From Candidatus Multivoradales bacterium (lineage in GTDB: Bacteria > Acidobacteriota > Thermoanaerobaculia > Multivoradales > J023): a stretch of DNA of 64,000 nt. Below are positions 7,677 through 28,215 of this stretch, piece after piece; position 1 is the stretch's first letter; each line of letters opens with the position of its first letter. Position numbers and translations under genes: made by a program. The stretch is taken from the NCBI GenBank assembly GCA_965248925.1, contig CBDFLE010000006.1, positions 512,001 to 576,000 on the forward strand, read 5' to 3'. The notes under the pieces were generated by a model that ran no database searches, had not been told where the DNA came from, and saw only the letters and a program-made list of their open reading frames with translations.

Positions 7677-8588
7677 TCAGCGATCCCGCTCAGGAGTCCG
7701 GGAATGCTGTTGTTCGCATTGGGTGCTGTCGGCCAGCGACCTGAGCTGTTCGGGAAGGCGCCGCCAGCCGGCACGAACTCGCTCGAAGGTGTCCGCGAGC
7801 CCGAGAGTCTTGAGGCGGTACTTGCGTCCCTTCACAGACGGGTCGCTGATGCGACATCCTTCGAGGTCTTCGATGCCGATGGTCTTGCCACGCCTGTAGA
7901 GTCTGAGCCCATGGTCCAGCAATCGGCGGTAGCAGTCGGGACCGGAACGGGCGACGGCCAGCTCACTGGCAATCACTTCGCGAATGGTCTCCTTACGGCT
8001 TGGGCTCCGGTCGCCACGCCCAAGGCGACGGCGGCGTTCTTGCTCGGATCTCGTTTCCCGCACTTCCCGGTCGCCTCGTGGCTGCCGTGACCTTCGTGAC
8101 CTCCGGCCTTGCGCCAGGGAGTTGGTGAGGAACGGGTAGCGCTTTTTCTGGTACTGCTCCAGCTCGCGCTGGATCTGGCGGAAATGCTGTTTCGAGAGTC
8201 GGAGCCGCTGGCTGGCGCCGACGTTGTTCGCCGAGATCAACAGATGGACGTGCGGGCAATCGGTGTCGTAGTGCGCCTTGGCGTAGGCGAGGGCGTACGG
8301 AGCCCGGAGATCGAGATAGCGTCGCGTCAGATCTTCCTGAATGGCGGGGGTCAGGGCCGAGCTATCGCCTTCCCCGAAACTCAGGATCTCGTGGTAGAGC
8401 ACGTTCCCGTTCTTACGTGCCGGGAGCAGGTGAGCGTTGGTGTTGAACTCGCCGCGAATGGCGGCAGGGTCGTCTTGGTGGATCTGGAGGTTGTGCAGAA
8501 GCGCGGAGCCGGTCTTCTCCGGTGCGCTGAAATAGTCCAGCAGCTGGCCGAAGGAAACGCTCTTACGCGCCATCGACTTGATCATCAT
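7677..8588 (-). CDS. MOB_P-type relaxase/mobilization nuclease
   Basis: Motif I (QLLDYF), motif II (YHEILSF), HUH motif III (AHYDTDCPHVHLLIS); start MMIKSMARK at 8588. Confidence 0.9.
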   Translation of the reverse strand: MMIKSMARKSVSFGQLLDYFSAPEKTGSALLHNLQIHQDDPAAIRGEFNTNAHLLPARKNGNVLYHEILSFGEGDSSALTPAIQEDLTRRYLDLRAPYALAYAKAHYDTDCPHVHLLISANNVGASQRLRLSKQHFRQIQRELEQYQKKRYPFLTNSLAQGRRSRRSRQPRGDREVRETRSEQERRRRLGRGDRSPSRKETIREVIASELAVARSGPDCYRRLLDHGLRLYRRGKTIGIEDLEGCRISDPSVKGRKYRLKTLGLADTFERVRAGWRRLPEQLRSLADSTQCEQQHSRTPERDR

Positions 8589-9139
8589 GGGGATCTGTTG
8601 AAGAGGAGGAGGAAGACGGGAGAGATTCAAGAACGACGCGGAGCATGGTCACCTGACGCTCCAGCATCACAACCAGTTGGGCACCTTTGCGGAGGTCATC
8701 GTGGGTGAGCCGTTGGTAGGTGCTGGCGCGATCGGCGATCTGGTGGAAGCTGGTACCGACCCGGCGAATCTCCTGGACCATGCCTTGTAGGCGAGATTCC
8801 AGGGATGCTGGTAGGAGCGATTTTCGATCGAGGTACGCCAGCCCTACGTCGCGCAGGAAGGGTGCGACACGGCTATGAAATTGGTTAGCAGCATGCGAGA
8901 TCTTGAAGTACTGATCCGGGTAGAGTGCCTGCACCGACGGAAACCGACCACCGATTCCGATTGAAAGTGACCAGTGATTCCAACGGAATCTGACCATCGA
9001 TTCCGATCGAAAGTGACCACTTTTCCGGGTCGATCGGAATGGGTGGTCAGATTGGATCGGAATCCTGGCCACGGCGGAGTTCGACGGTAGCGCGCTCCTC
9101 ACAATTGGGGTATTCCAGCCTCCTTGAAAGGAGAATTGG

Positions 9140-10714
9140 ATGCCGAGAGTGAGGACATCGATGCGCAAGATACGCGAGGTACTGAGACTGAAATGGCAGC
9201 ATGGCCTGTCGCACCGCCAGATCGGACGGTCGGTTCGGCTGGGCCACGGGACGGTGTGCAACTACCTGCTGCGAGCCAAGGTTGAAGGCCTGAGCTGGGA
9301 GCAAGTAGCAGCTTTGAGCGACGCTGAGCTGGAGCAACGCCTGTACCCTCGGCCGCAGCCGCTTCGGAGGGGTGGTCAGCGAGCCTTGCCCGACTGGACC
9401 AAGGTGCATGGCGAGCTGAAGAAGAAGGGCGTAACCCTGTCGCTGCTGTGGCAAGAGTACCGGGAGGACCATCCTGACGGCTACGGTTTCAGCCGCTTCT
9501 GTCAGCTGTACCGGATCTGGGAAGGGCGCCTGGATGTGTGCCTGCGCCAAGCCTACCGGGCGGGCGAGAAGCTGTTCGTCGACTATGCCGGACAGACCGT
9601 GAGGGTGATCGACCCGGCGACTGGCAAAGCGCGCGAAGCGCAGATCTTCGTGGCGGTGCTGGGGGCGAGCAACTACACCTATGCCGAATCAACGTGGAGC
9701 CAGGGCCTGGAGGACTGGATCGGCTCTCATGTGCGGACCTTCGCGGCTCTGGGCGGGGTGAGCGAGCTGGTGGTGCCGGACAATCTGAAGAGCGGCGTGA
9801 CCAGCCCGTGCCGCTACGAGCCGGAGATCAATCGCACCTACGCGGAGTTGGCCGAGCACTACGGCGTGGCGGTGGTGCCGGCGCGGGTGAGGAAGCCCCA
9901 AGACAAGGCGAAGGTCGAAAACGGTGTATTGCAAGTGGAGCGCTGGATTCTGGCCCGGCTGCGTAACCAGCAGTTCTTCAGCCTGCGAGAGCTCAACGAG
10001 AGCATCGCGAAGCTTCTGGTCGAGCTTAACGACCGTCCGCTGAAGGTGTTGGGCGTCTCGCGCCGAGCGCTGTTCGAGCAGGTCGATCGTCCTGCTCTGG
10101 GTGCTTTGCCGCTCCAGCCCTACGAGCTTGCCGAATGGAAGAAGGTACGCGTTGCCCCGGACTACCACGTCGAGTTCGAGGGCCACTATTACAGTGTGCC
10201 GTACCAGCTGATCAAGAAGCAGCTCGATCTGCGGGCGACGGCGCAACTGGTGGAGGTGCTCGATCGCGGCAAGCGTGTGGCTGCTCATCGTCGCAATCGG
10301 TGTCGGGGTCGGCACACGACCCAGAGCGAGCACATGCCCAAAGCGCACCAGGCGTACCTGGAGTGGACACCGACACGGCTGATCAGCTGGGCGGCGAAAA
10401 CAGGCCAGGCGACGGCCGAACTGGTGGAGACCATCATGCTTAACCGCTCCCATCCTCAGCACGGCTTTCGCTCGTGTCTGGGGCTGATGCGCCTGGGCAA
10501 GACCTATGGTGCCAATCGTTTGGAGGCTGCGTGCCGCCGCGCGCTCGCCATTCACGGCCTGTCCTACAAGAGCGTGAAGTCGATCCTGAAGAGCGGCCTG
10601 GACCAGCAAGCAGCGCCCGAGCCCACCGAAGTGACGGCGCCGATCGAGCACCACAACGTCCGCGGCGCCAGCTACTACAGTGCCGCGCGCCGCGAGGAGA
10701 CGCCGCCATGCTGA
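9140..10714 (+). CDS. istA: IS21 transposase IstA
   Basis: N-terminal HTH, FVDYAG, VPDNLKSGV and KAKVE DDE motifs. Confidence 0.97.
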   Translation: MPRVRTSMRKIREVLRLKWQHGLSHRQIGRSVRLGHGTVCNYLLRAKVEGLSWEQVAALSDAELEQRLYPRPQPLRRGGQRALPDWTKVHGELKKKGVTLSLLWQEYREDHPDGYGFSRFCQLYRIWEGRLDVCLRQAYRAGEKLFVDYAGQTVRVIDPATGKAREAQIFVAVLGASNYTYAESTWSQGLEDWIGSHVRTFAALGGVSELVVPDNLKSGVTSPCRYEPEINRTYAELAEHYGVAVVPARVRKPQDKAKVENGVLQVERWILARLRNQQFFSLRELNESIAKLLVELNDRPLKVLGVSRRALFEQVDRPALGALPLQPYELAEWKKVRVAPDYHVEFEGHYYSVPYQLIKKQLDLRATAQLVEVLDRGKRVAAHRRNRCRGRHTTQSEHMPKAHQAYLEWTPTRLISWAAKTGQATAELVETIMLNRSHPQHGFRSCLGLMRLGKTYGANRLEAACRRALAIHGLSYKSVKSILKSGLDQQAAPEPTEVTAPIEHHNVRGASYYSAARREETPPC

Positions 10715-11472
10715 GGCACGCGACGCTCGATCAACTCGCCGCGCTCAAGCTCCACGGTATGGCCAAAGCCTTTGAGGAGCAGCTGTCGATGGTCGATGTC
10801 TCAGAGCTCTCCTTCGAAGAGCGCCTCGGGCTGCTGGTCGAGCGCGAAGCGACCGAGCGATCCAGCCGCCGCTTGATAGCGCGGTTGCGAAAAGCCAAGC
10901 TGCGCGAGCAGGCGGCCATCGAAGACATCGACTGGCGAGCCAAGAGGGGCCTGGACAAAGGCCAGATCCTGCGCCTGGCCTCGTGCCAGTGGATCGCCGA
11001 GCATCTCAACGTGCTGATCACCGGCAAGGCCGGGGTGGGCAAGACCTTTCTCGCCTGCGCCTTCGCGCACAAGGCATGTCGGGAGGGTTACACCGCTTTG
11101 TACCTGCGGGTGCCGAGGCTGTTTCGCCAGCTCGCCATCGCGCGGGGTGATGGTAGCTACGAGAAGCTGCTCAAGAGCTATGCTCGCACAGACCTGCTCA
11201 TCCTCGACGACTGGGGGCTGGCGCCGATCGGGGCCAGCGAGCGGCGCGACCTGCTCGAGATTCTTGAGGACCGCTACGGCAACCGCTCCACGCTGGTGAC
11301 CTCCCAGCTACCGGTTGAGAGCTGGTACGAGGTCATCGGCGATCCGACCTTGGCCGACGCCATCCTCGATCGCATTGTCCACGGCGCCTACAAGCTCGCG
11401 GTGGACGGTGACTCCATGCGGGCGAAGAGAGCCGGCGGTATTCGCAAGGCCGCCCAGCGAGAGGCAAGGTGA
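10708..11472 (+). CDS. istB: IS21 helper ATPase IstB
   Basis: Walker A GKAGVGKT, Walker B LLILDDWG, ADAILDRIVH; ATG at 10708 overlaps the end of istA. Confidence 0.97.
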   Translation: MLRHATLDQLAALKLHGMAKAFEEQLSMVDVSELSFEERLGLLVEREATERSSRRLIARLRKAKLREQAAIEDIDWRAKRGLDKGQILRLASCQWIAEHLNVLITGKAGVGKTFLACAFAHKACREGYTALYLRVPRLFRQLAIARGDGSYEKLLKSYARTDLLILDDWGLAPIGASERRDLLEILEDRYGNRSTLVTSQLPVESWYEVIGDPTLADAILDRIVHGAYKLAVDGDSMRAKRAGGIRKAAQREAR

Positions 11473-12134
11473 GATCCAAGAGCATGCTGAAGCGATCGCC
11501 GATCCTGACCCATCAGCGGGCCTGCGGCCCGATCCGGACCCGACCCAAGATGGACTGTGGAAGCTGCCGCGGCTGTGGAAATCGCTCTGCGATTCCCACA
11601 GCCGCTTGGAAAACGCCCCCCGGCCACCCACCCGCGTTTCCCACAGCTACGCACAGCCCCGACGACGGGTTATTTGAATACAATCAACCAAGAAGAAGAA
11701 CCGGAAGGAGGGCTCCAGCTACAGCGAAAGTGGACACCTACAACTGAGGAGAGCGCCAGCGTCGCTTCGCTCCGACAAGTGGTCGGTTTCGATCGGAATG
11801 GCTGGTCAGTTTCGTCGGAATAGGCAGGTAGAGATTGCAAGTGATGCGGTGGGTGTAGGTGCCGTGCATATGGAATGAGGGGAAAAAGGACACGCGGCCA
11901 TGAGCGAGCGCCCACGAACACAGCGCACCCTACGTCCCATCGTAGGCTGCTGGAAGAGCCTCGGCTTCTCGGCAGCCGGTTTTCTACGGAAGAGCGGATG
12001 AATTGACGGTGGGAAGCTGACGGGCGGTGGACTGGCGAGCTTCGAGAGACCGCGAAAGAACTACTGTAGCGGCGATCCCGCTTAAGGTTCCATTAATAAT
12101 TCCAGTGCGTCACAGTTCACAGCTGTGTTGTTTC

Positions 12135-12235
12135 GGGGGTCGTGGGGGCAGCGCCCCTACGCAAGATAGGACGCTCTGCGGACGGTGCAATTGGGCGGAC
12201 GAGCTGTGCTCGGCTGCCCAATTGCAATCTTGCCC
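12135..12235 (-). other. Candidate oriT (IncP-like nick region plus inverted repeat)
   Basis: Minus-strand CCTATCTTGC (12161-12170) resembles the RP4 nick region CCTATCCTG^C; adjacent hairpin TGCAATTGGGC...GCCCAATTGCA (12186-12226); upstream of mobC-relaxase. Confidence 0.55.
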
Positions 12236-12388: not shown

Positions 12389-15300
12389 ATGACACCGGAT
12401 TTCACCTACGACGTTTTCTTGAGTCACAGCTCTCAGGACAAGCTCGCCGTGCGCGCTCTGGCAGAGCGATTGCGAGAGGACAGAATAAGAGTCTGGTTCG
12501 ATGAGTGGAAGATTGGCCCCGGCGACAGTATTCCAGCGAAGATCGAAGCAGGACTGGAGCAGTCGCGTGTGCTCGTGCTTTGCATGTCGGACAGTGCGTT
12601 CGGCTCTGACTGGGCGCAGCTAGAGGCCGGCACGTTCCGCTTTCGCGATCCACTGAACAGCGATCGCCGCTTCATCCCGTTGCGGCTCGACGATGCTCCC
12701 ATCAGAGGCTCCCTCGCTCAATTTCTCTACATCGACTGGCGGATTGAGGATCATGAGCAAGCCTACCTCGGATTGCTCAAGGCCTGTCGGGAGACCGAGC
12801 CAGGAAGTGCAACCGACATGCAGGATGAGAAATGGTGGTCGCGCGCGAAGCCACAGGATGTCGCCGCTCATGGGCCATCGAGGGATGACTTCCCTAAGAA
12901 GACCAAAGACACCCTTTCCCGAAGAGTAGGAATGAGGTGCTCCAATCCAGACTGCCGACAAACGACAAGCGGCCCACAATCCGATCCCGACAAAGCCATC
13001 AATATAGGTGTTGCCGCCCACATCACCGCTGCTTCGTCAGGCGGGCCGCGATATGACGGATCGCTTTCAAAGGTAGAGCGTTCTTCGATCCAGAATGGCC
13101 TCTGGCTCTGCCAGAACTGCGCGAAATTGGTGGATAGCGACGTAGGACGATTCACCGTCGAGTTGCTCCAAGAATGGAAGAAGAATGGGGAGAGGTCGGC
13201 TCAACGAGCGTTGGAGACCAGTGCGAGCATTGCTAGCGATATTGGCGATGCCGCCACCGACCGAAAGACGAGTGCTGCGAAAAGGAAGATCGACAAGGCG
13301 CAGGAGCTAGCTCGTTCAGGAAAACTCAGCGAAGCAATAGCGGAGGCTCTTGAGTCCCTCGAGATTGCGCGGAACGAGAACGACGAAGAGCAAGAGGTGG
13401 AAACCTTGCTCGCCTTAGCGCTGCTCTCGTCGGATCGACAAGGGATCGGAGACAGACTTCACTATTTTCAAGAAGCTGAGAAGAAAGTCGACAAGATCAA
13501 GGCACCTGCGGCTAAGGCTATCTACTTGCGCGCGAAGGCAGCAGTTCTGGGTGAGCAAGGCGACACCTCAGGAGCCGAGGCGCTCTACAAAGAGGCGCTC
13601 GACATCTGTTCGAGGGAGGAGGACGACGAGAAAAGAAATCTTGCGACTCAAGCGTGCATCTTGCGGTCAGACTATGTCCATCTCCTTTGCGGTGAGAAGA
13701 GATATGAGGAGGCGGAAGCAGTTCTAAGGGCGTGTGAAGATTATGCGCGCGACAACCGCGATGCTAGGAACACAGAACTCCTTGGGGCGGCGCTGGAGGC
13801 CGGGATACATCTGTACCTCGATACTAAGGACAAGGAAGGAGCCGTGGCCCGAATCGAAGAACTTGAAGCTGCGGCCACCACGATAAGGCTAGCGGATCGT
13901 ATCGGCGGCGAGCTCCTCAATATCGCGAATCACGCGGCCCACAGAAAGATGTATGGCGCTGCCCTTCGCGCGGCAGAAGCGAGCATACGGTTGGGTCACC
14001 GCTGTGATGATGGCAAGTCGCCGGGCTTCCTGATCGGAGCGTTGTATACCGAGGCAATGATCTTGGCGAAATCTGGTGATGAGATGGCGCTAACCAAGGC
14101 CCAAGCAGTACTGAGCGCCTGTTGTAGGCCAGAGGATCAGGCCGTCAGACAAGCGGCCAGCCAGCTGATCGCGGAGATACGACGGACAGCTGGCGATTCA
14201 GAGTCGGCAGTTGATCTCGCGCGCGGGGCCTTAGCGTTGGCCACAGGAGGGCCAGAGAACATCGCTTTCTCGAAGTCTGCGCTGGCCCGAGCGCTGAATG
14301 ACAACGGCCAAACTGAGGAGGCGTTCAATGAGGCGAGCGAGGCGTGGGCGCTACTTGAGCAAGCTAGTATTCCGCCTAAAACGGCACTGGATGTTCTGGC
14401 TCAGGTAACCAACTATGGATCGCAGATCGGCAACGACGCTGGTGTTCGGAGCGCACTCGACACGATCGCTGTGTTACCAGACGAGGAGGGGGAACTCGAG
14501 GAGGAGAAGACCCGTGTCGTCGCGCGGGCGGATGCTAACCGTCAGATTAGAGAGAGGATTCTGGAGATATCAACGCCGTCGAGTTCAGAAGATGGCCCGA
14601 ATATCGAGGCAGGTGTAGCCACTCTCCAGGACGCGAACGCGAGAGTTGTCGAGCAGTTAATCGGCCTTTGGGATGAAGTACCGGAAGCCGCCGGAGGAAT
14701 CTATGACTTCTGGGGTCGGGGCAATTTTGTGCGCCTGCTCGAGAATGCTCGGCGTTACCCAACTAGTTTTAATGTAACAGTCGAGGTGCGCAGTTTAGAG
14801 GACGTGAAACGAGCGATTCGCCTGTGGGGCCTCTACGCTGATTTTCTTCTGCTTCTCTGGAAGGGCGAGTCTCAGAGTGGGCTGGCCATCGTGCCCTTTC
14901 CGCGAGATTTCAAGGGGCCCGGAGGCTGGGGCTACATTGTGGCTATGGGCGACGAAATGAAGGTCGAAGGCTCATCGAAAATATGGCATGGCGCGTTGGC
15001 GCAGATTTCAAGTATCCCGGACGATGTAGCTGCATTTCTTGCAACTGAAGCCCGGCGGTTTGTGGAGACGGGTCGCCTGATTGTCGTGTCGGCTCCAGCT
15101 GTAGGTTGCACCAACCCAGGTCACGGACCGTTTGAGCAGCTGCTCGCTGAGAGTGCAAACGCGATCCCAAGCGTACGCTGGAAGGGCTTTGAAGGTGAGC
15201 CGATTGGTCTTGTGCCGTACTCCCCGAACGCACCGTTGGAACTGCTAGCTGAGCTGACAGAGATCGAGGATGACCGGCTAAGGAAGCTGAGACTTCTTCT

Positions 15301-15709
15301 CGTTGAGCGGAGCAGACAGCTAGTGCCTGGCAATGAAGTGAAGGCCGGTGCAAGAATATTAGCTCTGGAGATTGACGACGCATTGCGTGACCTGACTGAT
15401 AGGACGGATGCCTTCTCTCGTAGGAAGGGACTGGAAAGAGCAGCCGAGCCACTGTGCGCTGGAATCGCCCGCTTTAGACGTGAGGGACTGGCACTGTCTG
15501 ACGAGGCTTCTCACTCCCCATTTGCACCGCTGTTCGTACTCCAGAGCTTAGGATACGGGTGGCGAGTTGACAGCGGGGCGATACCGAAGCCCCCAGGGCG
15601 TTTCCAGCCAGAGTCCGGTGACATCGTTGGGACATGGTTGGCTCCACCAACAGCGGGCTGGACGGTACCTATCATGCGCGCTGTCGATGCCGATGATAGG
15701 GAGACTTGA
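12389..15709 (+). CDS. TIR + HNH-like nuclease + TPR + unknown C-terminal domain fusion; putative defence protein
   Basis: TIR (YDVFLSHSSQDK...SDWAQLE), Zn/HNH-like (RCSNPDC...AAHITAASSGGPRYD...NGLWLCQNC), helical TPR-like middle; ATG at 12389 with AAGGA upstream. Confidence 0.85.
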   Translation: MTPDFTYDVFLSHSSQDKLAVRALAERLREDRIRVWFDEWKIGPGDSIPAKIEAGLEQSRVLVLCMSDSAFGSDWAQLEAGTFRFRDPLNSDRRFIPLRLDDAPIRGSLAQFLYIDWRIEDHEQAYLGLLKACRETEPGSATDMQDEKWWSRAKPQDVAAHGPSRDDFPKKTKDTLSRRVGMRCSNPDCRQTTSGPQSDPDKAINIGVAAHITAASSGGPRYDGSLSKVERSSIQNGLWLCQNCAKLVDSDVGRFTVELLQEWKKNGERSAQRALETSASIASDIGDAATDRKTSAAKRKIDKAQELARSGKLSEAIAEALESLEIARNENDEEQEVETLLALALLSSDRQGIGDRLHYFQEAEKKVDKIKAPAAKAIYLRAKAAVLGEQGDTSGAEALYKEALDICSREEDDEKRNLATQACILRSDYVHLLCGEKRYEEAEAVLRACEDYARDNRDARNTELLGAALEAGIHLYLDTKDKEGAVARIEELEAAATTIRLADRIGGELLNIANHAAHRKMYGAALRAAEASIRLGHRCDDGKSPGFLIGALYTEAMILAKSGDEMALTKAQAVLSACCRPEDQAVRQAASQLIAEIRRTAGDSESAVDLARGALALATGGPENIAFSKSALARALNDNGQTEEAFNEASEAWALLEQASIPPKTALDVLAQVTNYGSQIGNDAGVRSALDTIAVLPDEEGELEEEKTRVVARADANRQIRERILEISTPSSSEDGPNIEAGVATLQDANARVVEQLIGLWDEVPEAAGGIYDFWGRGNFVRLLENARRYPTSFNVTVEVRSLEDVKRAIRLWGLYADFLLLLWKGESQSGLAIVPFPRDFKGPGGWGYIVAMGDEMKVEGSSKIWHGALAQISSIPDDVAAFLATEARRFVETGRLIVVSAPAVGCTNPGHGPFEQLLAESANAIPSVRWKGFEGEPIGLVPYSPNAPLELLAELTEIEDDRLRKLRLLLVERSRQLVPGNEVKAGARILALEIDDALRDLTDRTDAFSRRKGLERAAEPLCAGIARFRREGLALSDEASHSPFAPLFVLQSLGYGWRVDSGAIPKPPGRFQPESGDIVGTWLAPPTAGWTVPIMRAVDADDRET

Positions 15710-15887
15710 GGGGCGGACAGCGAGTCCTTCTGGAGCGTGTCGAGCCTGGACTCTTCTCTAGCTGGGCGGCGGACGAAGGCTCGATAGTTCAATCTCTGGC
15801 TTCAGGGCTGCCCCTTTTCATGGCGGGTCATTCGACCGGCCGCCGCAGGAGCCCAAAATAGGGAGGTGACTTTCATCCCTACTATCC

Positions 15888-17018
15888 ATGACCTCCGCAT
15901 CACGCCCACGTCTCATCGCCGAGAACCTCACCCAGATCCGCCAAAACACCAACTGGCGCCAGTTCTTCGAAGCCCTGAAGCTCCCCAGAGACCCCAAGAA
16001 ATCCAAAGACCACGACTGGTGGGCCAAGAGCCCCTTTCGACCTGACGAGCGTACTGCCTCGTTCCATATGAACGCTCGCGGCTGGTATTGCCACGCTACA
16101 AGCCAGGGCGGCGGCCCCATCGAATTGGTGCAGCGTCTCCATCCGGGAATGCACTGTTTCGATGCTGGCCGATGGCTTCTGGAGCATGGCGTCAGCCGCG
16201 TTGTATCGGATGTTCGGGAAGATCTTCATCTTCTCGAAGGCGCAGATACCGTTCAGTCCGAGAAGGAGCCCTCGAACGAGCCAGTCCGGCAGGATCTCCG
16301 GAGCCAGCTCTCCGCGAACCACCGGCTCTGCGCCGCTCGGGGCGTCCCTTCCGAGATCTACCGAGAATTGGGTGCTGGCTTCCTGGATCGGCCAATTCGG
16401 AAGAATGGGAGACCCGATCCACTGAACCACCGAATCGTGTTCCAGATCCGGGGACTCAAGGAGAACGAGACCGGAGAGCTTCATGCCGTTGTCCTCGGTC
16501 ATATGGGCCGAGCGACAACAGAAGACCAGGCCGACCGGGATGGCAAATGGTGGACGTATGCAGGATTCAAGAAAAGTCTGGAGCTGTACAACCTCGACCA
16601 CGCGATCCTTGACGATGAGGCCGTTGACCAAGCCAAGGGTACCGAGCATCTTCTCGTCGTGGAGGGACTGTTCGATGTCGCCAGGCTCTACGCCGCCGGC
16701 ATTCGCAACGTGGTCGCTACTTTCGGCGCCAGCCTCAGCACAGCTCAGCTCAGGCGACTCGATCTCATCAGCGAGATGGTCGGTGTCAACCGGTTCATCA
16801 TCTTCTACGATCGAGACCGGGCTGGACACAAGGGTGCCAAGAAGGCTCTTGAGGCGATTACGGCTTCGGGGCTCGGCATTCAGGCTGAAGTCTTCGATTG
16901 GAACCGCGTCTGGGAATCGACCGTCCGAGGTGATGTCGGCATTCCCGCATCGATCACCGATCCCGCCGAGTTCTCCCTCGGGCAGCTTCAATGGCTCCGT
17001 CATGAGGGGATCCTGTAA
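15888..17018 (+). CDS. DnaG-like primase (degenerate CHC2 zinc-finger region + Toprim)
   Basis: SPFRPDERTASF...WYCHATSQGGGPIELV; Toprim VVEGLFDV...ATFGASLS...FYDRDRAG. Confidence 0.85.
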   Translation: MTSASRPRLIAENLTQIRQNTNWRQFFEALKLPRDPKKSKDHDWWAKSPFRPDERTASFHMNARGWYCHATSQGGGPIELVQRLHPGMHCFDAGRWLLEHGVSRVVSDVREDLHLLEGADTVQSEKEPSNEPVRQDLRSQLSANHRLCAARGVPSEIYRELGAGFLDRPIRKNGRPDPLNHRIVFQIRGLKENETGELHAVVLGHMGRATTEDQADRDGKWWTYAGFKKSLELYNLDHAILDDEAVDQAKGTEHLLVVEGLFDVARLYAAGIRNVVATFGASLSTAQLRRLDLISEMVGVNRFIIFYDRDRAGHKGAKKALEAITASGLGIQAEVFDWNRVWESTVRGDVGIPASITDPAEFSLGQLQWLRHEGIL

Positions 17019-17030
17019 CCGTCCTCGCCC

Positions 17031-17918
17031 ATGAAGATCTCCAGCTTCCACCGGGAGTTCAAGCATTACGCGCTTCTAGGGAAAGGCATGACCAACGGCG
17101 TCTACCGCTCAATCGGCTACACCCTTCGGATGCTGTGTCGATATGCGGCGACTGAAGAAATCGGCTCGTTGACGCCGGACATGATTCGCGCTTTTCTCTA
17201 CTACGGACGAAGCGAGCGCGGCTGGGCGGCAAAGACCTACCGAAATCACTGGCAGTACCTCAAGATCTTCTTCGACTTCTGTCAGCGGCAAGGCTACGTC
17301 CGCTCCAATCCCGTCGAAGGAATCGAGAAGCCGAAGCTCCCGGAGCGACTCCCACGTTGCCTTTCTCACGAAGACTCCTTGAAAGTCCTGGCATACTCGT
17401 ACGGCTACGATTGGCGGTACCACCTTGAAGCTGCACGGAATCACGCGATCATCGCGACTCTGATGATGACCGGCCTCCGGCTGCAAGAGCTTCTGAATCT
17501 CGAAGTCCACGATCTCGACCTGTCGGGGTGCGGGATTCTCGTGAGGCGAGGGAAGGGCCGCAAGGATCGGCTCGTTCCTGTTTACCACAAACTTCTGCCC
17601 ATCCTTCGTAACTTCCTGGAAGCGAAGCGCCAGTCTGGGAAAATCTCTCGCTGGCTGTTCACGGGCGTCAAGTCTGACAAGCAGCTCGCGCAAAAGGACG
17701 TTCGTCGGATCTGCCAAAGAATCTCCGTCGCCTGCGGTGTCAAGTTCACTCCTCATGTTCTCCGGCACACCCTCGGCCGCGAGCTGGTAGACAACGGCGT
17801 CGATATCAAGACGGTGCAGCGAATCTTTGGTCACGCTCAGGTGACCACCACCGAGATCTACACTCATCTTTCTACGCGAGCGTTCAATGGGAATTTTCAA
17901 AGGGCGAGAATCTTTTGA
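17031..17918 (+). CDS. Tyrosine recombinase/integrase (XerC/D-like) 1
   Basis: TGLR, GKGRK, HVLRH, FGH and TTEIY catalytic motifs. Confidence 0.95.
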   Translation: MKISSFHREFKHYALLGKGMTNGVYRSIGYTLRMLCRYAATEEIGSLTPDMIRAFLYYGRSERGWAAKTYRNHWQYLKIFFDFCQRQGYVRSNPVEGIEKPKLPERLPRCLSHEDSLKVLAYSYGYDWRYHLEAARNHAIIATLMMTGLRLQELLNLEVHDLDLSGCGILVRRGKGRKDRLVPVYHKLLPILRNFLEAKRQSGKISRWLFTGVKSDKQLAQKDVRRICQRISVACGVKFTPHVLRHTLGRELVDNGVDIKTVQRIFGHAQVTTTEIYTHLSTRAFNGNFQRARIF

Positions 17919-18049
17919 CAGATCGCGAGGAAATCTCTACGGTGTGGATACCTGCCTTCAGGTCGCTGAACATCGGAAGCCCATCTTTGGGTCACCCATC
18001 GGAATGCCGCATAGGAACTTGCATTACGGGACTTGAAAGCCACTGAGCT

Positions 18050-18096
18050 GGCTCATAACCCGAAGGTCGCAGGTTCGAGTCCTGCCCCCGCAACCA
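18050..18096 (+). other. 3' fragment of initiator tRNA-Met (att-like site)
   Basis: GGCTCATAACCCGAAGGTCGCAGGTTCGAGTCCTGCCCCCGCAACCA matches the anticodon loop (CAT), T-arm, acceptor 3' strand and CCA of tRNA-fMet; the 5' half is absent. Confidence 0.9.
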
Positions 18097-18185
18097 ATAT
18101 CCGCTACAGGAGCGGACTCCGAAGAATCGACAGTCCGACAAAGAAGGTTCAGCGACCACAGGGCAGAGCCCTATGGTCACTGGCT

Positions 18186-19112
18186 ATGTCTGAAATTGAA
18201 CAACTCCATCGGCAATTCTGCGAGTTCTCGCTGACCTTCAAAGCGAATACTCCACGGACGATCAAGTGGCTCCGCGCCACGTTCGCCGATTTTCTGCGCG
18301 GGACTGAGTTGACCAGCGCGACGCAGCTCGACCGAAGAACAATCGAGAACTGGATCGTCCGCAAGAAGCTGGAGAACAGCTGGTCCGCGAAATCGGTGCG
18401 GAACAATCTCCAAGCCTTGAGCCTCTTCTGCGACTGGCTGGTTCGGGAGGAGTATCTGGTCGAGAATCCGACATCCCAAATCCCGAAACCCAAGCTGCCA
18501 CATACAATCCGTCCGCATCTGACGGTAGAGACAGCCCAGGATCTTCTCGACTGGACGCGGAACTTCCCGTTTGGGTATGCCTTCGAGCGAGCGCGAGCCA
18601 CGGCCATTCTCTCCACCTTCCTCCACACCGGCATTCGCCTGGAAGAGCTGAGAAACCTCCACTGCGTCCATGTCGACCTCGAAAACCGCTCCCTATTCGT
18701 GGAGAAGGGAAAATGCCAGAAGGATCGAATCGTTCCGTTCGGCCTACCGCTAGTGGAGGCGCTTCAGGAGTACTTGCGCCATAGAACCAGATTGAAGAAG
18801 AGCTGCCCCTATTTCTTTGCGGCGATGCGGCAAGACAGCCAGATGGGAGACTCGGTGATCAAGCGGCTCGTTTCCAGGCTGCGCGACAAGAGCGGGATCT
18901 ACTTCTATCCACACATGCTGAGGCACACCTACGCCACATTGATGTTGCAGGGCGGGGCCGACATCAGGGCGGTGCAAGAACTGTTGGGCCACGCCTCGAT
19001 CCTTTCGACACTGCCGTACCTGCATACGACGACGGCGCATCTCCAGGCGCAGATCCAAAAGTATCCGCTCAATGTAGATTGGCAGGGGCCTCACGGCATC
19101 AAGGGCCTCTGA
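18186..19112 (+). CDS. Tyrosine recombinase/integrase (XerC/D-like) 2
   Basis: TGIR, GKCQK, HMLRH, LGH and STLPY motifs; ATG at 18186. Confidence 0.95.
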   Translation: MSEIEQLHRQFCEFSLTFKANTPRTIKWLRATFADFLRGTELTSATQLDRRTIENWIVRKKLENSWSAKSVRNNLQALSLFCDWLVREEYLVENPTSQIPKPKLPHTIRPHLTVETAQDLLDWTRNFPFGYAFERARATAILSTFLHTGIRLEELRNLHCVHVDLENRSLFVEKGKCQKDRIVPFGLPLVEALQEYLRHRTRLKKSCPYFFAAMRQDSQMGDSVIKRLVSRLRDKSGIYFYPHMLRHTYATLMLQGGADIRAVQELLGHASILSTLPYLHTTTAHLQAQIQKYPLNVDWQGPHGIKGL

Positions 19113-19161
19113 ATGAATGAAATCTCAGACTTCGCCGGTTCGCCTCTGGCCAGACAGCCAG

Positions 19162-19992
19162 CTAGCGGTCGACTTTCAAACGAGCGCGGAGTTCGGCGAG
19201 GTTCTCCTCGATGTGGCTCGGGATAGGCACTTGCCGGTTAAGGGTTTCACGAAGAACCTGATACTTCTCATGCCATTGCCGGAAGTCCCGAAGTTCTTCT
19301 TTAAGCGAAAAGGCAAGAGCCTCGACGCAGGTGACGGCAACCATGGTGTACAAGTTGCAGAGGTTTCGAAGCACCTCTTCGTCGAGAGGACCACCGAATC
19401 TTCCCGCGAAGGCAAGCCCTCTGCCTATCTGCCCGCCATCCTGAAAGCTAGTGAACGCTGACGTCACCGGGAGGACGCTAGCATGCCCAAGAGGAGCCGT
19501 AATCAACCATGCCGTCCTGAGTCTTTGGAAAAGTTCACTCGGTATTGAGTCGAGTCTCCGTAGAACCGAACCCCCGGTGCCCTGTCGTGAATTCCAGACC
19601 TTCTGAAAGTCTGCCGGTGAGTGGACGCTGAAAACTTGGAAGATCGAGGCTTCTGCGGCCCCTCGCGAAAGCGTTAGGCTCACACGCGGATGAGCAATAA
19701 CGCTGCTGAACCAGCCCCATAAGAGATGATCGGCGGCGAAGCAGGCGAGGGCGACAGAGAGTCTGGGTGTCTCCGAAAAGTCCTGGCCGGAGAGAACATT
19801 GAGCCCACCAAGGTGAAGCTCGAACGCGGGTTTCAGTACAACGGCTTCAAGCTCGCGTACGATCTCTTTCGATTCAGGATGGGCATTGGCCGTGATCCAT
19901 TGATTGTAGGTCTTCTCGGCACTCTCAAATGCCTCAGCCTCCGTGAGCGTGGGGGCAACCTCCTCGCGAGAGGGCAGTTTCTGATGAGTCAT
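19162..19992 (-). CDS. Hypothetical protein, possibly HEPN-like helical fold
   Basis: 276-aa ORF; LSRGAAE and ...APLGH motifs loosely resemble HEPN-superfamily patterns. Confidence 0.65.
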   Translation of the reverse strand: MTHQKLPSREEVAPTLTEAEAFESAEKTYNQWITANAHPESKEIVRELEAVVLKPAFELHLGGLNVLSGQDFSETPRLSVALACFAADHLLWGWFSSVIAHPRVSLTLSRGAAEASIFQVFSVHSPADFQKVWNSRQGTGGSVLRRLDSIPSELFQRLRTAWLITAPLGHASVLPVTSAFTSFQDGGQIGRGLAFAGRFGGPLDEEVLRNLCNLYTMVAVTCVEALAFSLKEELRDFRQWHEKYQVLRETLNRQVPIPSHIEENLAELRARLKVDR

Positions 19993-20051
19993 TGTCTTGC
20001 CTCAGAATTCGCGTAAGCGCCTTTGTAGTATGTTTGTTGTCGCGGCGTATT

Positions 20052-21377
20052 CTACTGGGCCGAGGACTTGACGAACAGGAAGCCGACTCCACAAGAGGGT
20101 GGGGACAACCAGTGGAAATGACCATCCTCCAGTGAATCCGGAGCAGTCTTCCTTCGTTGGAGTTTGTGTCGACGAAGAGGCATTCGACGACGCCGAAACG
20201 GCTTTCTCCGCCCCAAATCCCAAAGCAAGTACAAGGGATTCCGGCGAAGCTCCAGGCCGCTGTCAGAGGCCTGTCGAAGACACTCGCAAAGTCCTGCCGC
20301 GGCAACTCCTCCGGCAGCCGCCACGAGAGCTGTCCCAACTGCTCCAGTTGCTCCAGCCGCACTTCCTAGCGCGGCTGCGGTGGTGCCAACAATGCCTCCC
20401 AGCCCCGTTACTGTTGCTCTGAACCGACGAGCCCGATCTGAAAGAGCCAGCTCCGAGACCTCGTAGTTGAGTTCCGAAACAAATTCCTCTAAGCGGTCAT
20501 GAGGAGAGGCCTCAGCAAGTCGGCGAAACGCGACTCGTAGGCGTTCAAGTTCAACAGGGGAATCCGCCATCATGCTGTCGAACTCTGCGGGTGCCATCCC
20601 GTCCAACACCGGAAGATCAAGTGATAGCAGCTTTTCCTCGGTTTGACTCAGCATCGCGCTATCCCGGAGAGGGAGCGCTCCCACAAGATTCTCGAAGCCA
20701 GTGCGAACATCGTCGGCGGCGGACGACAGTCCAATCAGCTCTTCCGGCGCAACAAAGACATCACCGCGTGAGAACGCGAGTGGTCCTTCTTCGACGATCC
20801 AATCCCCGACGACTTCTGGTAGCAAGCGAGCGTAGCCAAAGATCTCAGACCAGAGTCGACCGCGCATCTTTATCTCGTTGGTGATCGCTAAGTATCCCCA
20901 CCCAGCATCCCAGAGGCTGTCGGGTTCGCCCGGATGGAGATGCGACACTCGCACTGGTCTACTGAGTGCTCCTCGCCATAGGAATTCAATTGGAACCCCA
21001 AGCAACGCTAGTCGGCGATATGTCCAACGCATCTCGTCGACGAATTGAACTGAGACTTGGAGTGGACGGACTGCGTTTAGGTTGTTGTGGATCAGCCGCC
21101 GCGCATAGTTTCCGCGAGCCCAGAAGTCCAAAGACGCCGAGCGGCCCCTAGCTGACTTCATCCAATCCAGCAGCAGATCGTATTTCGGCGCTGGTGGTTT
21201 ACCAGAGGGGTAAGACGAGAGATCGAATGGCGTCGCTGGGTACGCATATAGCTCCGCCGAGCGGGGGTCTTTACCATCGATCGTGATCCTAGCTTTCGGT
21301 TCCAATTTGGCAGGATCCCTTTCCTGATGTCGTGGTCTCTGACCTTGGTTGCGTCGACTTTGGCAATCAGATTGCAC
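20052..21377 (-). CDS. Hypothetical protein homologous to the C-terminal domain of the TIR-HNH-TPR protein; start uncertain
   Basis: Shares collinear DFWxRGN, LW[KR]G, GWGY, PL[YF]xLxxLG and WLxPP motifs; has an extra Gly/Ala hydrophobic segment. Confidence 0.8.
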   Translation of the reverse strand: MQSDCQSRRNQGQRPRHQERDPAKLEPKARITIDGKDPRSAELYAYPATPFDLSSYPSGKPPAPKYDLLLDWMKSARGRSASLDFWARGNYARRLIHNNLNAVRPLQVSVQFVDEMRWTYRRLALLGVPIEFLWRGALSRPVRVSHLHPGEPDSLWDAGWGYLAITNEIKMRGRLWSEIFGYARLLPEVVGDWIVEEGPLAFSRGDVFVAPEELIGLSSAADDVRTGFENLVGALPLRDSAMLSQTEEKLLSLDLPVLDGMAPAEFDSMMADSPVELERLRVAFRRLAEASPHDRLEEFVSELNYEVSELALSDRARRFRATVTGLGGIVGTTAAALGSAAGATGAVGTALVAAAGGVAAAGLCECLRQASDSGLELRRNPLYLLWDLGRRKPFRRRRMPLRRHKLQRRKTAPDSLEDGHFHWLSPPSCGVGFLFVKSSAQ

Positions 21378-21695: not shown

Positions 21696-21770
21696 TGGAG
21701 CCGATGAGCGGATTTGAACCGCTGACCTGCTGATTACGAATCAGCTGCTCTACCCCTGAGCTACATCGGC
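21696..21770 (-). tRNA. tRNA-Thr(CGT)
   Basis: GCCGATGTAGCTCAGGGGTAGAGCAGCTGATTCGTAATCAGCAGGTCAGCGGTTCAAATCCGCTCATCGGCTCCA folds as a cloverleaf, anticodon CGT, encoded CCA. Confidence 0.97.
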
Positions 21771-21888: not shown

Positions 21889-23730
21889 TTAGGGGTCGGA
21901 GGCCGCGTGCTCGATTACTAGCCAATGGCGATCTAGGGCTCGTATCCAGCGCAGCCGCACTGGGCCGAGAAGCTCGCGATCTAGCTCTTCTGCAAGAGCC
22001 ATTTGCTGGCGGATCTGTGGCTCTGCCCGCGGCAGCGGCACAATGGGCTCTCTGGCTGAGAGGAGAAAGGGCAACCAACGGCGCCAGGGAGCGGCGATGG
22101 GACCTAGTATCACCGGCGTGGCGGAAGCCGCCCGGCGCGCTAAGCGGCGAGCTCGGGCGAGATCGCTGGGCTTGGGCTGCCGACCACCGGCGGGCCAAGC
22201 TTCTAGCTGACGGCGGCCGGCGCCGGCTCGGTCGACGGCAATTAGCCAGCTGCCACCAAGCCCCGGAGGACGGGTGCGGAAAAGCTGCCAACGATCTATA
22301 ACTCCGGCGGGCTCGAGAGCCAGGTCGTAGCCCGCCAGGGAGGTCAGAAGAGCCTCGGTGGGCAAGCTGGAGACCCGCCGCTGGAGGTGGGTCGCCAGCC
22401 GGCCCGCTTCACGGTAGGCCCTGGATTGCGCGGCTGGGTGGTCGAGCAGGAGCAGGAGGTCACCCCTACCCACACTCGCCGAAGTCAGGTGCCGGGCAGC
22501 CAATGGCCGCAGCCGGGCTCGCAGCACGCGATTCTCGAAGCTGGTCCGCCACAGGTCTCGTAGGGGACGGATCTGCCAGCGGCTTGGCTCGCTGGGCTGC
22601 GCGGATAGATCGAGGTAAATCGGCGGTAGGGGCCATAGTGCGACCTGCCGACCACCGGCGACCGTGTCGCCAGGCTGAGGCAGGCAGAGACCGACCAGGA
22701 GAAACAGAGCGGCAAGCCGTCGGAGCAGCGGTGGGCGCAGATGGCTCAGGCCGGCAGCCACCAGGAAGGCGGTGGGCAGGTAGGCATAGGTCATGAACCG
22801 CTGGCTGCTGTAGCCGTAAAACAGGACGAAGAACAACAGTTGAGCAACCAACAACAGCAGCAGGGTGCCTTCCCAGGACCGCGTCCGCGCTCGACGAAGC
22901 ATGACCGGCAGACCAAGAACAGCGAGTATCAGAGCCGGCAAACCGAGCAAGCGCAAGCCGGCAATCAGGTAGAAACCCACCGCATCGCCGCTCACCCTCA
23001 ATAGGCCCCAATGCCGCACCTCGACATCGATCAGCTCAACTAGCAGCCCCTGGCGAATCAACCACCAGATCGCCGTCGGTCCGAGAAACGCCACCATGGC
23101 CAAGTAGTGCCGCCGACTCGGCCGACGCCGCTGTAGCACCCCGATCGCAGCTGCTGACAAGGGCAGCAACCAAGCCAACGGCTGGGTGATGGTGCTGAGC
23201 CCGCCGCAGAAGCCTGCCACTAGCAGCAACTTGGGGCGGCATTCTGCCCAGCGAGCAAAGAATAGAGCCCAGGCCAACAAGCAGGCGGCCAACATGTCGG
23301 CCATCAACTCTAGCGAGCGACAACGCCAGACAAAACCCATTAGCCAAGCCAACGAAACTAGCAACGACAACTGCCAGGGATGCTGCCGCCGCAAGACTGC
23401 GTACAACGCTAGAATGGTGCCCTGCGCTACCAGCTGCAAGGCGAGCGGCAGCCAAGGCAGCAGATTTGCCCTCTCGGCTAAAGCAACTAACAAGGGCAAC
23501 AATGGCAATCGCGCTGAATAGCGCACTTCCGCTCCGACCCAACGCAGGCCGTTGGCCAACCAATCGTAAGTGTCACCGCCGACGAAGGGGTAGTCTAGCG
23601 CTAGGCTCGGATAGAGCAACTTCGGCAGCAACCAGACGAGCTGACAAAGCACCACCAGCAAGAGACAGCGGAATCCAAGGTCGTGGGCGAGGCTCCGCGG
23701 TAAGCGGTGGGTTGCAACGAATCTAGACAC
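21889..23730 (-). CDS. Polytopic membrane protein, GT-C (ArnT/PMT-like) glycosyltransferase candidate
   Basis: Many TM helices, GGDTYDW loop after the first TM, R-x-P-L-L-P motif, QRFMTY. Confidence 0.6.
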   Translation of the reverse strand: MSRFVATHRLPRSLAHDLGFRCLLLVVLCQLVWLLPKLLYPSLALDYPFVGGDTYDWLANGLRWVGAEVRYSARLPLLPLLVALAERANLLPWLPLALQLVAQGTILALYAVLRRQHPWQLSLLVSLAWLMGFVWRCRSLELMADMLAACLLAWALFFARWAECRPKLLLVAGFCGGLSTITQPLAWLLPLSAAAIGVLQRRRPSRRHYLAMVAFLGPTAIWWLIRQGLLVELIDVEVRHWGLLRVSGDAVGFYLIAGLRLLGLPALILAVLGLPVMLRRARTRSWEGTLLLLLVAQLLFFVLFYGYSSQRFMTYAYLPTAFLVAAGLSHLRPPLLRRLAALFLLVGLCLPQPGDTVAGGRQVALWPLPPIYLDLSAQPSEPSRWQIRPLRDLWRTSFENRVLRARLRPLAARHLTSASVGRGDLLLLLDHPAAQSRAYREAGRLATHLQRRVSSLPTEALLTSLAGYDLALEPAGVIDRWQLFRTRPPGLGGSWLIAVDRAGAGRRQLEAWPAGGRQPKPSDLARARRLARRAASATPVILGPIAAPWRRWLPFLLSAREPIVPLPRAEPQIRQQMALAEELDRELLGPVRLRWIRALDRHWLVIEHAASDP

Positions 23731-27820: not shown

Positions 27821-28215
27821 GACTCAGCTCACCCGAGACTGGGCCTTGTGCTTCGAGGAAAACTCAAGAGGCGGCAGCCAAGGGATGCCGTAAACTCACA
27901 ACATCAAACATTTTTGAGCTTTTGTTTTGGACAAGAGTGACAAAAAATAGTCCAGGTGAAACGGCGAGATGACAGCTCCTGCGAGACCCGACTGTAATGG
28001 AGCCCGTAACCTCCTTGCCCTATTCTCGCATTTGTCAGCAATAAATCGCTCTCAGATTTCAGGCCGACAGGGACTGGACGCCCGAGTTTGATTCCGAATT
28101 CGGCACCGACGACTCATCGCTGACAGTCTTGTACTACGTTGCTTTCCGTCCCGCGGAGAGCTGTCAGAGGAGTAGCAGAGAATTGGGATTTGCCAACAAC
28201 GAAAGGACGCTGCAG

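Follow-up and report, generated by a model that had tools for sequence, protein, structure and literature searches.

A shared, unnamed domain in two divergent proteins of an acidobacterial mobile island: a possible control module of single-gene conflict proteins

Two genes in a stretch of 64,000 nucleotides from Candidatus Multivoradales bacterium (Acidobacteriota; assembly GCA_965248925.1, contig CBDFLE010000006.1, positions 512,001 to 576,000), hereafter the window, encode proteins with a domain in common, which we call X. The domain is genuine, has about 340 residues and is without a name. In the longer protein (window positions 12389-15709) it follows a TIR domain, an HNH-type endonuclease region and an array of tetratricopeptide repeats (TPR), and in the shorter one (20052-21377) it stands alone, with a hydrophobic hairpin inserted in it. 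The reading that we favour, whose chances we put at about even, is that X serves as the constant module, a sensor or switch, in single-gene conflict proteins of the abortive-infection type, which come in two architectures. The two window genes are best explained as separate, anciently diverged systems that have gathered in one island, and not as partners.

Results

Two divergent copies of one domain

A first-pass annotation of the window, made from its letters alone, had proposed that the C-terminal third of the long protein and the short protein are collinear homologs, and each of the alignments that we made bears this out. BLASTP of one protein against the other returned a match (E 9e-8, 36/142 identities) between residues 841-977 of the long protein (P0001) and residues 84-219 of the short one (P0002), and the C-terminal block WLAPPTAG/WLSPPSCG was also recovered. 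In a shuffle test, the Smith-Waterman score of the two copies was 110, as against 38.8 +/- 6.6 for shuffled sequences (maximum 79; z 10.7), and none of 500 shuffles reached it; the semi-global score was 80 against 11.6 +/- 6.0, reached by none of 300. We gathered 18 relatives of the short protein and 66 of the last 360 residues of the long protein. Comparison of the family profiles (19 sequences for the stand-alone form, 66 for the fused form) by hhalign gave a probability of 99.4% and an E of 5.5e-22 over 341 aligned columns, which extend from DFW(G/A)RGN to WL(A/S)PP, that is, over the whole domain. All eight pairs of motifs that had been picked out by eye stand in register in this alignment. 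The X copies of the two window proteins are certainly homologous across the entire domain.

Because the fused and stand-alone copies are only about 25% identical, they do not stem from a recent duplication and must be old, as the annotation had also held. Despite this divergence, ten positions are kept in at least 80% of the members of both classes: D84, W86, R88, G89, R93, R121, G159, G161, Y162 and E197 (numbering of P0002). Judged by this conservation, they are natural candidates for a ligand-binding or interaction site.

Composition of the two proteins

The two proteins and their parts are located as follows.

12389..15709, + strand: TIR-HNH-TPR-X protein, 1106 amino acids
12413..12763, + strand: TIR domain (Pfam TIR_2, PF13676; E 3.3e-26, 92.6 bits against a cut-off of 28 bits)
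12881..13243, + strand: HNH-type endonuclease region, like the effector heads of Cap5 and SAVED-HNH proteins (PADLOC and PDB matches)
13316..14359, + strand: TPR region (Pfam TPR_12 and TPR_10, NCBIfam NsdA-like TPR), with helical sequence continuing to about 14629
14630..15706, + strand: domain X, fused copy, 359 amino acids (delimited by the 341 hhalign columns and by AlphaFold2)
20052..21377, - strand: stand-alone X protein, 441 amino acids (equal to protein P0003 of the collection)
20280..20414, - strand: hydrophobic hairpin rich in Gly and Ala, inserted in X (residues about 322-366) and followed by the motif RRNPLYLLWDLG

The frame of the long protein is open from a GTG at 12185, and the ATG at 12389 is its likely start, which is also the start of the identical entry in the public protein collection (P0022, 1106 amino acids, 100% identity). 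The matches to Pfam, PADLOC and NCBIfam models confirm the order of TIR, HNH-like and TPR parts ahead of X that had been read from the sequence. The closest solved relatives of the TIR domain are structures of the NAD+ hydrolase AbTIR (PDB 7uwg and 8g83, E 2.5e-12 and 6.4e-12), and the Glu of its 'DWAQLE' aligns with the Glu of the AbTIR sequence 'DWTNYE', within the W-x-x-x-E motif; we take this Glu to be the catalytic residue. The HNH region, of the sort that Cap5-like effectors of CBASS carry, matches three PADLOC models (PDC-M68A, E 1.7e-25; Effector endonuclease, E 3.6e-18; SAVED_HNH, E 1.4e-17) and, in the PDB, the HNH endonuclease 9om4 (E 2e-8) as well as the SAVED-HNH chains 7rwm and 7rwk, and its sequence shows a His, an Asn and two Cys pairs. 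As a side observation, an 824-residue 'tetratricopeptide repeat protein' of known structure (PDB 9m0n) matches the TIR head of the long protein (E 0.0023), with no hit from the X profile; it may be useful as a structural comparison for the TIR-TPR part.

Relatives of the stand-alone protein begin some 30-45 residues further in than the window copy. Across residues 322-368 or so, the hairpin segment of this copy consists of G, A, S or T at 68% of its positions, and its best 19-residue Kyte-Doolittle window scores 1.83. The 'membrane-type segment' that had been noticed in the short protein is therefore a real feature, and the fused copy has no equivalent of it, with 20 polar residues at the same position.

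An unnamed family with two architectures

Neither X nor any part of the short protein matches a model of Pfam, NCBIfam or PADLOC, in keeping with the view that the domain had gone unannotated. A joint profile of the two forms (A4), searched against 1.84 billion representative proteins, retrieved 484 proteins at E<=1e-3 (192 at E<=1e-10 and 75 at E<=1e-30), each of which represents a cluster at 50% identity. Two classes predominate among the family members: class A proteins, of about 900-1250 amino acids, have a variable N-terminus, TPR and X, and class B proteins, of about 380-440 amino acids, consist of X alone with the hydrophobic hairpin.

Scans of 20 and 34 fused relatives revealed, as heads of class A proteins, a Pkinase domain (P0040, P0184), a PNP_UDP_1 phosphorylase/nucleosidase (P0193, P0194, P0199, P0203, P0221), the trypsin-like peptidase Trypsin_2 (P0209), the esterase DUF676 (P0068) and DUF4062 (P0079). 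Other heads are a DUF626/LmuA-like one (P0220) and a common one of about 190 amino acids, to which Mrr_cat gave weak matches in 2 of the 45 family members scanned (E 0.021). In the accessible passages of a preprint (10.64898/2026.09.04.749371), DUF4062 is described as an immune NADase. TPR_12 was detected in 36 of the 45 members. The proposal that X is a modular core thus holds, in that it is joined either to swappable effectors by way of TPR or to a hydrophobic hairpin. Apart from these heads, some family members have a SEC-C zinc motif as an additional C-terminal tail past X (P0040, E 9.8e-10; P0147, E 4.7e-10).

In class B, the hairpin amounts to an extra 43-54 residues, mostly Gly, Ala, Ser, Thr and aliphatics split by a short polar turn, and is placed between the second helical hairpin of the domain and the conserved sequence R-x-N-P-x-x-L-L-W-x-L-G. 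Each of the 21 stand-alone rows in the joint alignment (A4) contains this extra hairpin. Because a plain hydropathy threshold is unspecific, with strands of the core passing as well, we applied a rule of at least 30 residues, at least 80% of them small or hydrophobic, and at most 3 charges. Among the 107 of 225 family proteins that are aligned across the region (the counts omit the other 118), this rule picks out 51 of 73 proteins of up to 480 amino acids and none of the 34 longer ones, and most of the remaining short proteins have a somewhat more charged version of the segment. In none of these 107 proteins does the hairpin occur together with an N-terminal effector and TPR. From its sequence, insertion of the hairpin into a membrane is plausible.

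An AlphaFold2 model of the fused copy, computed with 66 sequences, reached a predicted local distance difference test score (pLDDT) of 86.8 and a predicted template modelling score (pTM) of 0.87. In the model, an N-terminal hairpin of two helices bears DFWGRGN (D-x-W-x-R-G-N) and leads to an alpha/beta core with an inserted beta-meander, which bears LLWKG and the G-x-G-Y loop GGWGY; after the core come a 65-residue helical hairpin, two further strands and a poorly defined tail with WLAPP (WLAPPTAGW). The core is predicted to be a three-layer alpha/beta sandwich of Rossmann-like form. Foldseek, which had been suggested as a check on the domain, found no relative of the full model at E<=0.001 in either the PDB (best 0.071) or BFVD (best 0.025). 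Sequence searches of the PDB with the profiles A2, A4 and A6 gave rows at chance level only, and a search of the ESM Atlas with the fused copy gave no usable match.

A candidate relative of the C-terminal half

The nearest neighbours of the stand-alone protein (P0002) by a protein language model are clusters of DUF6236 (score 0.97, with low 'recognition'). The DUF6236 model itself (PF19749, cut-off 26.2 bits) matched neither window protein at E<=1, none of 22 members at E<=10, none of the 45 members scanned, and nothing in the whole genome at E<=1. Profile comparison by hhalign, for which the DUF6236 alignments were made from a member in a genome of the same phylum, its relatives and one divergent member from a viral contig, gave 82-84% against the stand-alone X family (E 1e-5 to 8e-6), over the C-terminal 119-124 columns only; with a single DUF6236 member it gave 67% over 48 columns. 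Like stand-alone X proteins, those of DUF6236 have about 370-400 amino acids, helices with E-L-x-x-F-R, a hydrophobic hairpin rich in Gly and Ala, and N-P-x-x-Y-L-L, but the N-terminal two thirds of X, with DFWxRGN and GWGY, are unmatched. On these sequence grounds, DUF6236 is probably a distant relative of the C-terminal half of X. The divergent member (about 35% identical to the others) lies among small open reading frames (ORFs) on an IMG/VR viral contig (L051:5694-6857, + strand). The literature searched contained no paper on DUF6236.

Distribution and gene neighbourhoods

A search of the source genome found only two copies of X, both in the window, and neither form occurs in the 400 other sampled genomes of the phylum (1 of 401 with the source genome included). 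For the stand-alone form, six loci were obtained from genomes of other species, after leaving out L009 as a partial match of 43 residues. These six have no neighbour in common, and none contains a fused copy in the stretch of DNA that was available around it. Five of them have neighbours of the following kinds: a ThsB-type TIR with SLATT, and NERD (L003); Macro (L005); TIR, Dcm, a GHKL ATPase and Vsr (L006); Cas1 (L007); and AAA_13 (L008).

The fused form was represented by 40 metagenome loci, of which 19 are shorter than 5 kb. No second X gene was found in any of them and no neighbour is widely conserved. The only one seen to recur is a gene for an ATP-grasp protein (MvdD pre-ATP-grasp), which directly precedes the gene of the fused form in three loci that are related to one another.

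L026:286-1332: ATP-grasp (MvdD-like) gene
L032:339-1385: ATP-grasp (MvdD-like) gene
L038:4861-6270: ATP-grasp (MvdD-like) gene

Among the 16 larger fused loci, which together hold 111 ORFs, restriction-modification genes are present in 5, and the other genes include TPR-CHAT, components of ABC-3C, a TOTE-type primase, conjugation genes and an integrase. Both forms of X are single genes with changing neighbours, which frequently belong to defence or to mobile elements. The viral contigs of IMG/VR yielded no member of either family, which we count as neutral and not as support.

The island around the two genes

Both window genes lie in a mobile island. They are convergent and 4.3 kb apart, with a Toprim gene and two tyrosine recombinase genes between them; two transposases are also nearby.

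8986..11813, + strand: IS21-type element (istA 9140-10714, istB 10474-11472) with 40-nucleotide inverted ends that are 85% complementary
15888..17018, + strand: Toprim protein, between the X genes
17031..17918 and 18033..19112, + strand: two tyrosine recombinases, between the X genes
21696..21770, - strand: tRNA-Thr (CGT), its 3' end toward the stand-alone X gene, 319 bp away

The IS21-type element sits immediately ahead of the TIR-HNH-TPR-X gene. Next to it is a relaxase ORF (7677-8630), which its insertion may have disrupted. The tRNA gene sits between the stand-alone X gene and an ORF of 613 amino acids without a family (21889-23730, - strand). The G+C content is 0.57-0.58 across 12-22 kb, as against 0.62-0.63 on either side, and the island was probably inserted at the tRNA-Thr gene, to whose left it lies. 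Within the window we found no repeat of the 3' part of this tRNA gene that could mark an attachment site (att), so that the borders of the island are not fixed.

Several other features were recorded in passing. The Toprim protein matches only the primase-like parts of PADLOC DRT models (RT_UG29, E 1e-20; RTasDnaG-like, E 1.8e-14), and no reverse transcriptase was seen with it. A protein of 964 amino acids (2390-5284, - strand) combines a protein kinase (Pkinase, E 4.6e-44) with TPR (TPR_12, E 8.1e-49), which is the effector-TPR layout without X. At 15 kb from the island there is a second TIR protein (37026-38768, + strand; TIR_2, E 4e-25) with a C-terminal Lcl_C. About 8 tandem copies of an 18-nucleotide unit (...TTCGTTTGGAATGA...) occupy 29747-29930, in the 3' end of a subtilase ORF (28129-29964, Peptidase_S8), and would give a six-residue peptide repeat. 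The whole genome has 53 matches to PIN (PF01850), all above the cut-off, which makes for a very large repertoire of VapC-type toxins.

Discussion

Because the same module is joined to swappable heads, because the hairpin was found only where such heads are absent, and because the genes are single, patchily distributed and mostly seen in islands, we infer that X is the control part of these proteins. It would act as a sensor or switch, possibly also as an assembly platform, and the variable parts would be the killing devices. According to this model, X (with TPR in class A) would hold the protein off until a cue of infection brought about a change in its conformation or assembly. In the 12389-15709 protein, such a change would release the TIR NADase and the HNH DNase, leading to depletion of NAD+ and cleavage of DNA, and in the 20052-21377 protein the outcome would be insertion of the hairpin into the membrane, which would thereby be damaged.

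A role in defence and the function as a switch are both plausible, with chances that we would call balanced, and several observations weigh against them. The case for defence is drawn only from architecture and neighbours, and several fused loci (L019/L020, L027, L045) lie amid ordinary metabolic or transport genes. The mean hydropathy of the Gly/Ala-rich hairpin is only 0.7-1.2. In the HNH region, Ala-Lys comes after the second CxxC, at a place that His occupies in many HNH nucleases, so that nuclease activity is not certain. The fused family keeps a C-x4-H-G motif (C160 and H165 of the domain), along with a conserved E169, and the motif is missing from the stand-alone family. Finally, an enzymatic role, or one in assembly, would suit X just as well as sensing.

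The last of these points leads to the main rival explanation, that the activity resides in X itself, which would be an enzyme or a toxin that binds nucleotides, built on the Rossmann-like core, with the N-terminal domains and the hairpin as accessories for targeting or anchoring. The predicted fold, the glycine-rich loop GGWGY and the retention of D, R, E and Y in both classes would suit an active site, as would C160, H165 and E169 in the fused family, and yet we regard it as unlikely. An alternative of similar standing takes its lead from a conflict system of wide occurrence, encoded by single genes, that Kaur, Iyer, Burroughs and Aravind have described (eLife 2021, PMC8195603). In the passages accessible to us, this system joins an N-terminal effector that varies (EAD10, REase, HNH, PNPase, TIR, SIR2, trypsin and others) to constant TPR, GreA/B-C and novel PIN domains, and WP_017307658.1 is named as its archetype. 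The fused protein might belong to this system, so that X would be a GreA/B-C domain with a divergent PIN RNase acting on hijacked RNA polymerase, and the N-terminal effector a second line. The design is the same, the effectors overlap (HNH, REase, PNPase, TIR and trypsin, as far as these passages go), the core of X is a three-layer Rossmann-like sandwich as in PIN, and acidic residues are kept in both classes. If this were the identity of X, however, we would expect a beta-rich, FKBP-like domain of the Gre type between TPR and the alpha/beta core, where the AlphaFold2 model has two helices. Profile comparison detects neither domain: hhalign gave 0.1% and 0.9% for a GreA-C profile (13 sequences) against the X profiles, and 0.4% and 0.8% for a VapC-type PIN profile (16 sequences). 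Nor were GreA_GreB and PIN among the best 25 of 90 families matching 45 members in hmmscan (E<=10), and no Gre C-domain or PIN chain stands in the 50 best VIA rows for X. The text-readable supplements of PMC8195603 contain none of WGRGN, WARGN, GGWGY and WP_017307658.1, though the architecture tables, being PDF files, fall outside this set and the readable alignments seem not to cover the system. Such an identity, which would have to involve a version too remote for these comparisons to detect, we also consider unlikely.

The two remaining explanations concern the setting of the genes more than the nature of the domain. That the window proteins form one two-gene system, in which association of X with X couples the membrane form to the TIR-HNH form, is suggested by their lying within 4.3 kb of each other in the sole carrier among 401 genomes of the phylum, and homologous domains often self-associate. 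The annotation had likewise supposed that the two proteins could interact. But with no fused copy in any of the 6 stand-alone loci and no second X gene in any of the 40 fused ones, partnership is unsupported, and the genes are convergent, have Toprim and two recombinase genes between them and share no neighbour across loci; we judge a two-gene system very improbable. Alternatively, the family may not be immune at all and may belong to the signalling or housekeeping equipment of soil bacteria with large genomes, with TIR, kinase and PNP heads in regulatory roles. The metabolic or transport surroundings of the loci named above would fit this case, as would the lack of a link to phage in IMG/VR and the presence of an unrelated kinase-TPR protein in the window. 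Against it stand the patchy occurrence (1 of 401 genomes), the neighbours from mobile elements and of defence type, and effector heads that are typical of immune proteins, and we hold it to be quite improbable.

Returning to X as a constant sensor or switch, a bolder form of this reading can be framed, to which we attach only tentative belief. X would define a widespread group (at least about 480 clusters) of NTPase-free, one-protein immune sensors, which drive enzymatic warheads by way of TPR or perforate membranes with a glycine-zipper-like hairpin; the form of about 400 residues would be a complete unit for sensing and killing, and DUF6236 would be its sister family, with the C-terminal killing module in common. 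If X is indeed a sensor or switch, it would offer compact, ATPase-free control over a NADase, a DNase, a kinase, a nucleosidase, a protease, a lipase or a membrane hairpin, and would widen the range of ways in which sensing is coupled to killing in bacterial immune proteins. The stand-alone form of about 400 amino acids would, if this is true, be an unusually simple system for studies of activation, and D84, R88, R93, R121, Y162 and E197 (P0002) make up a ready set of residues for mutagenesis. Pfam DUF6236 would gain its first functional context.

Comparison with known systems

Because the design matches and the effectors overlap but GreA/B-C and PIN were not detected, we treat the system of PMC8195603 as the closest analogue of the X family and not as the same family. 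Common to the two, so far as the accessible passages show, are a variable effector, a TPR array, a constant C-terminal module and genes that mostly stand alone without conserved neighbours. They differ in that the X family has a form free of effector and TPR and equipped with a hydrophobic hairpin, of which those passages make no mention, and in that its constant module yields neither GreA/B-C nor PIN on comparison with the GreA-C and VapC-type PIN profiles. A separate observation concerns the searches for the Gre domain: in 11 of 13 hits (L053-L064 and G000:C6:1571622-1571825), the C-domain of GreA_GreB closes an open frame of 699-1023 amino acids instead of belonging to a Gre factor of about 160 amino acids. 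Either G+C-rich DNA has left long frames free of stops here, or the Gre-like proteins are unusually long.

Avs and other bacterial NLR-like (STAND) sensors resemble the X family in placing a swappable N-terminal effector (TIR, nuclease, DUF4062, protease and others) and repeats in one polypeptide. Their order is effector-NTPase-repeats, whereas that of the X family is effector-TPR-X, and neither a STAND nor any other P-loop NTPase was found in the 12389-15709 protein or in the 54 fused relatives scanned. The two N-terminal domains of this protein have counterparts in TIR NADases (AbTIR, ThsB) and in HNH effectors of the Cap5 type, for which SAVED, SLOG or a partner protein provides the control, while here only TPR and X are candidates for that task. 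For the stand-alone form, there is a parallel with SLATT-like membrane effectors of two helices, in which a short hydrophobic helical hairpin resembles the sole candidate for a killing part in stand-alone X. Unlike these, the hairpin of X is unusually rich in Gly and Ala and lies inside a soluble domain, and no sequence match to SLATT was found in 22 members, the only hit being DUF4231 in 1 of the 22 (E 0.24).

The annotation had spoken of an undescribed defence or conflict family. The gene context does fit conflict or defence islands, but since the combination of a variable effector, TPR and a constant module is already in print (PMC8195603, in its accessible passages), the kind of system is not new. 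X itself is named in no passage of the literature examined, a body that does not cover the PDF supplements of PMC8195603. The X family, then, is fairly large, unnamed and without a model or a structural relative; its members follow a familiar modular style of conflict protein, and the minimal form with a built-in hairpin is the more unusual of its uses.

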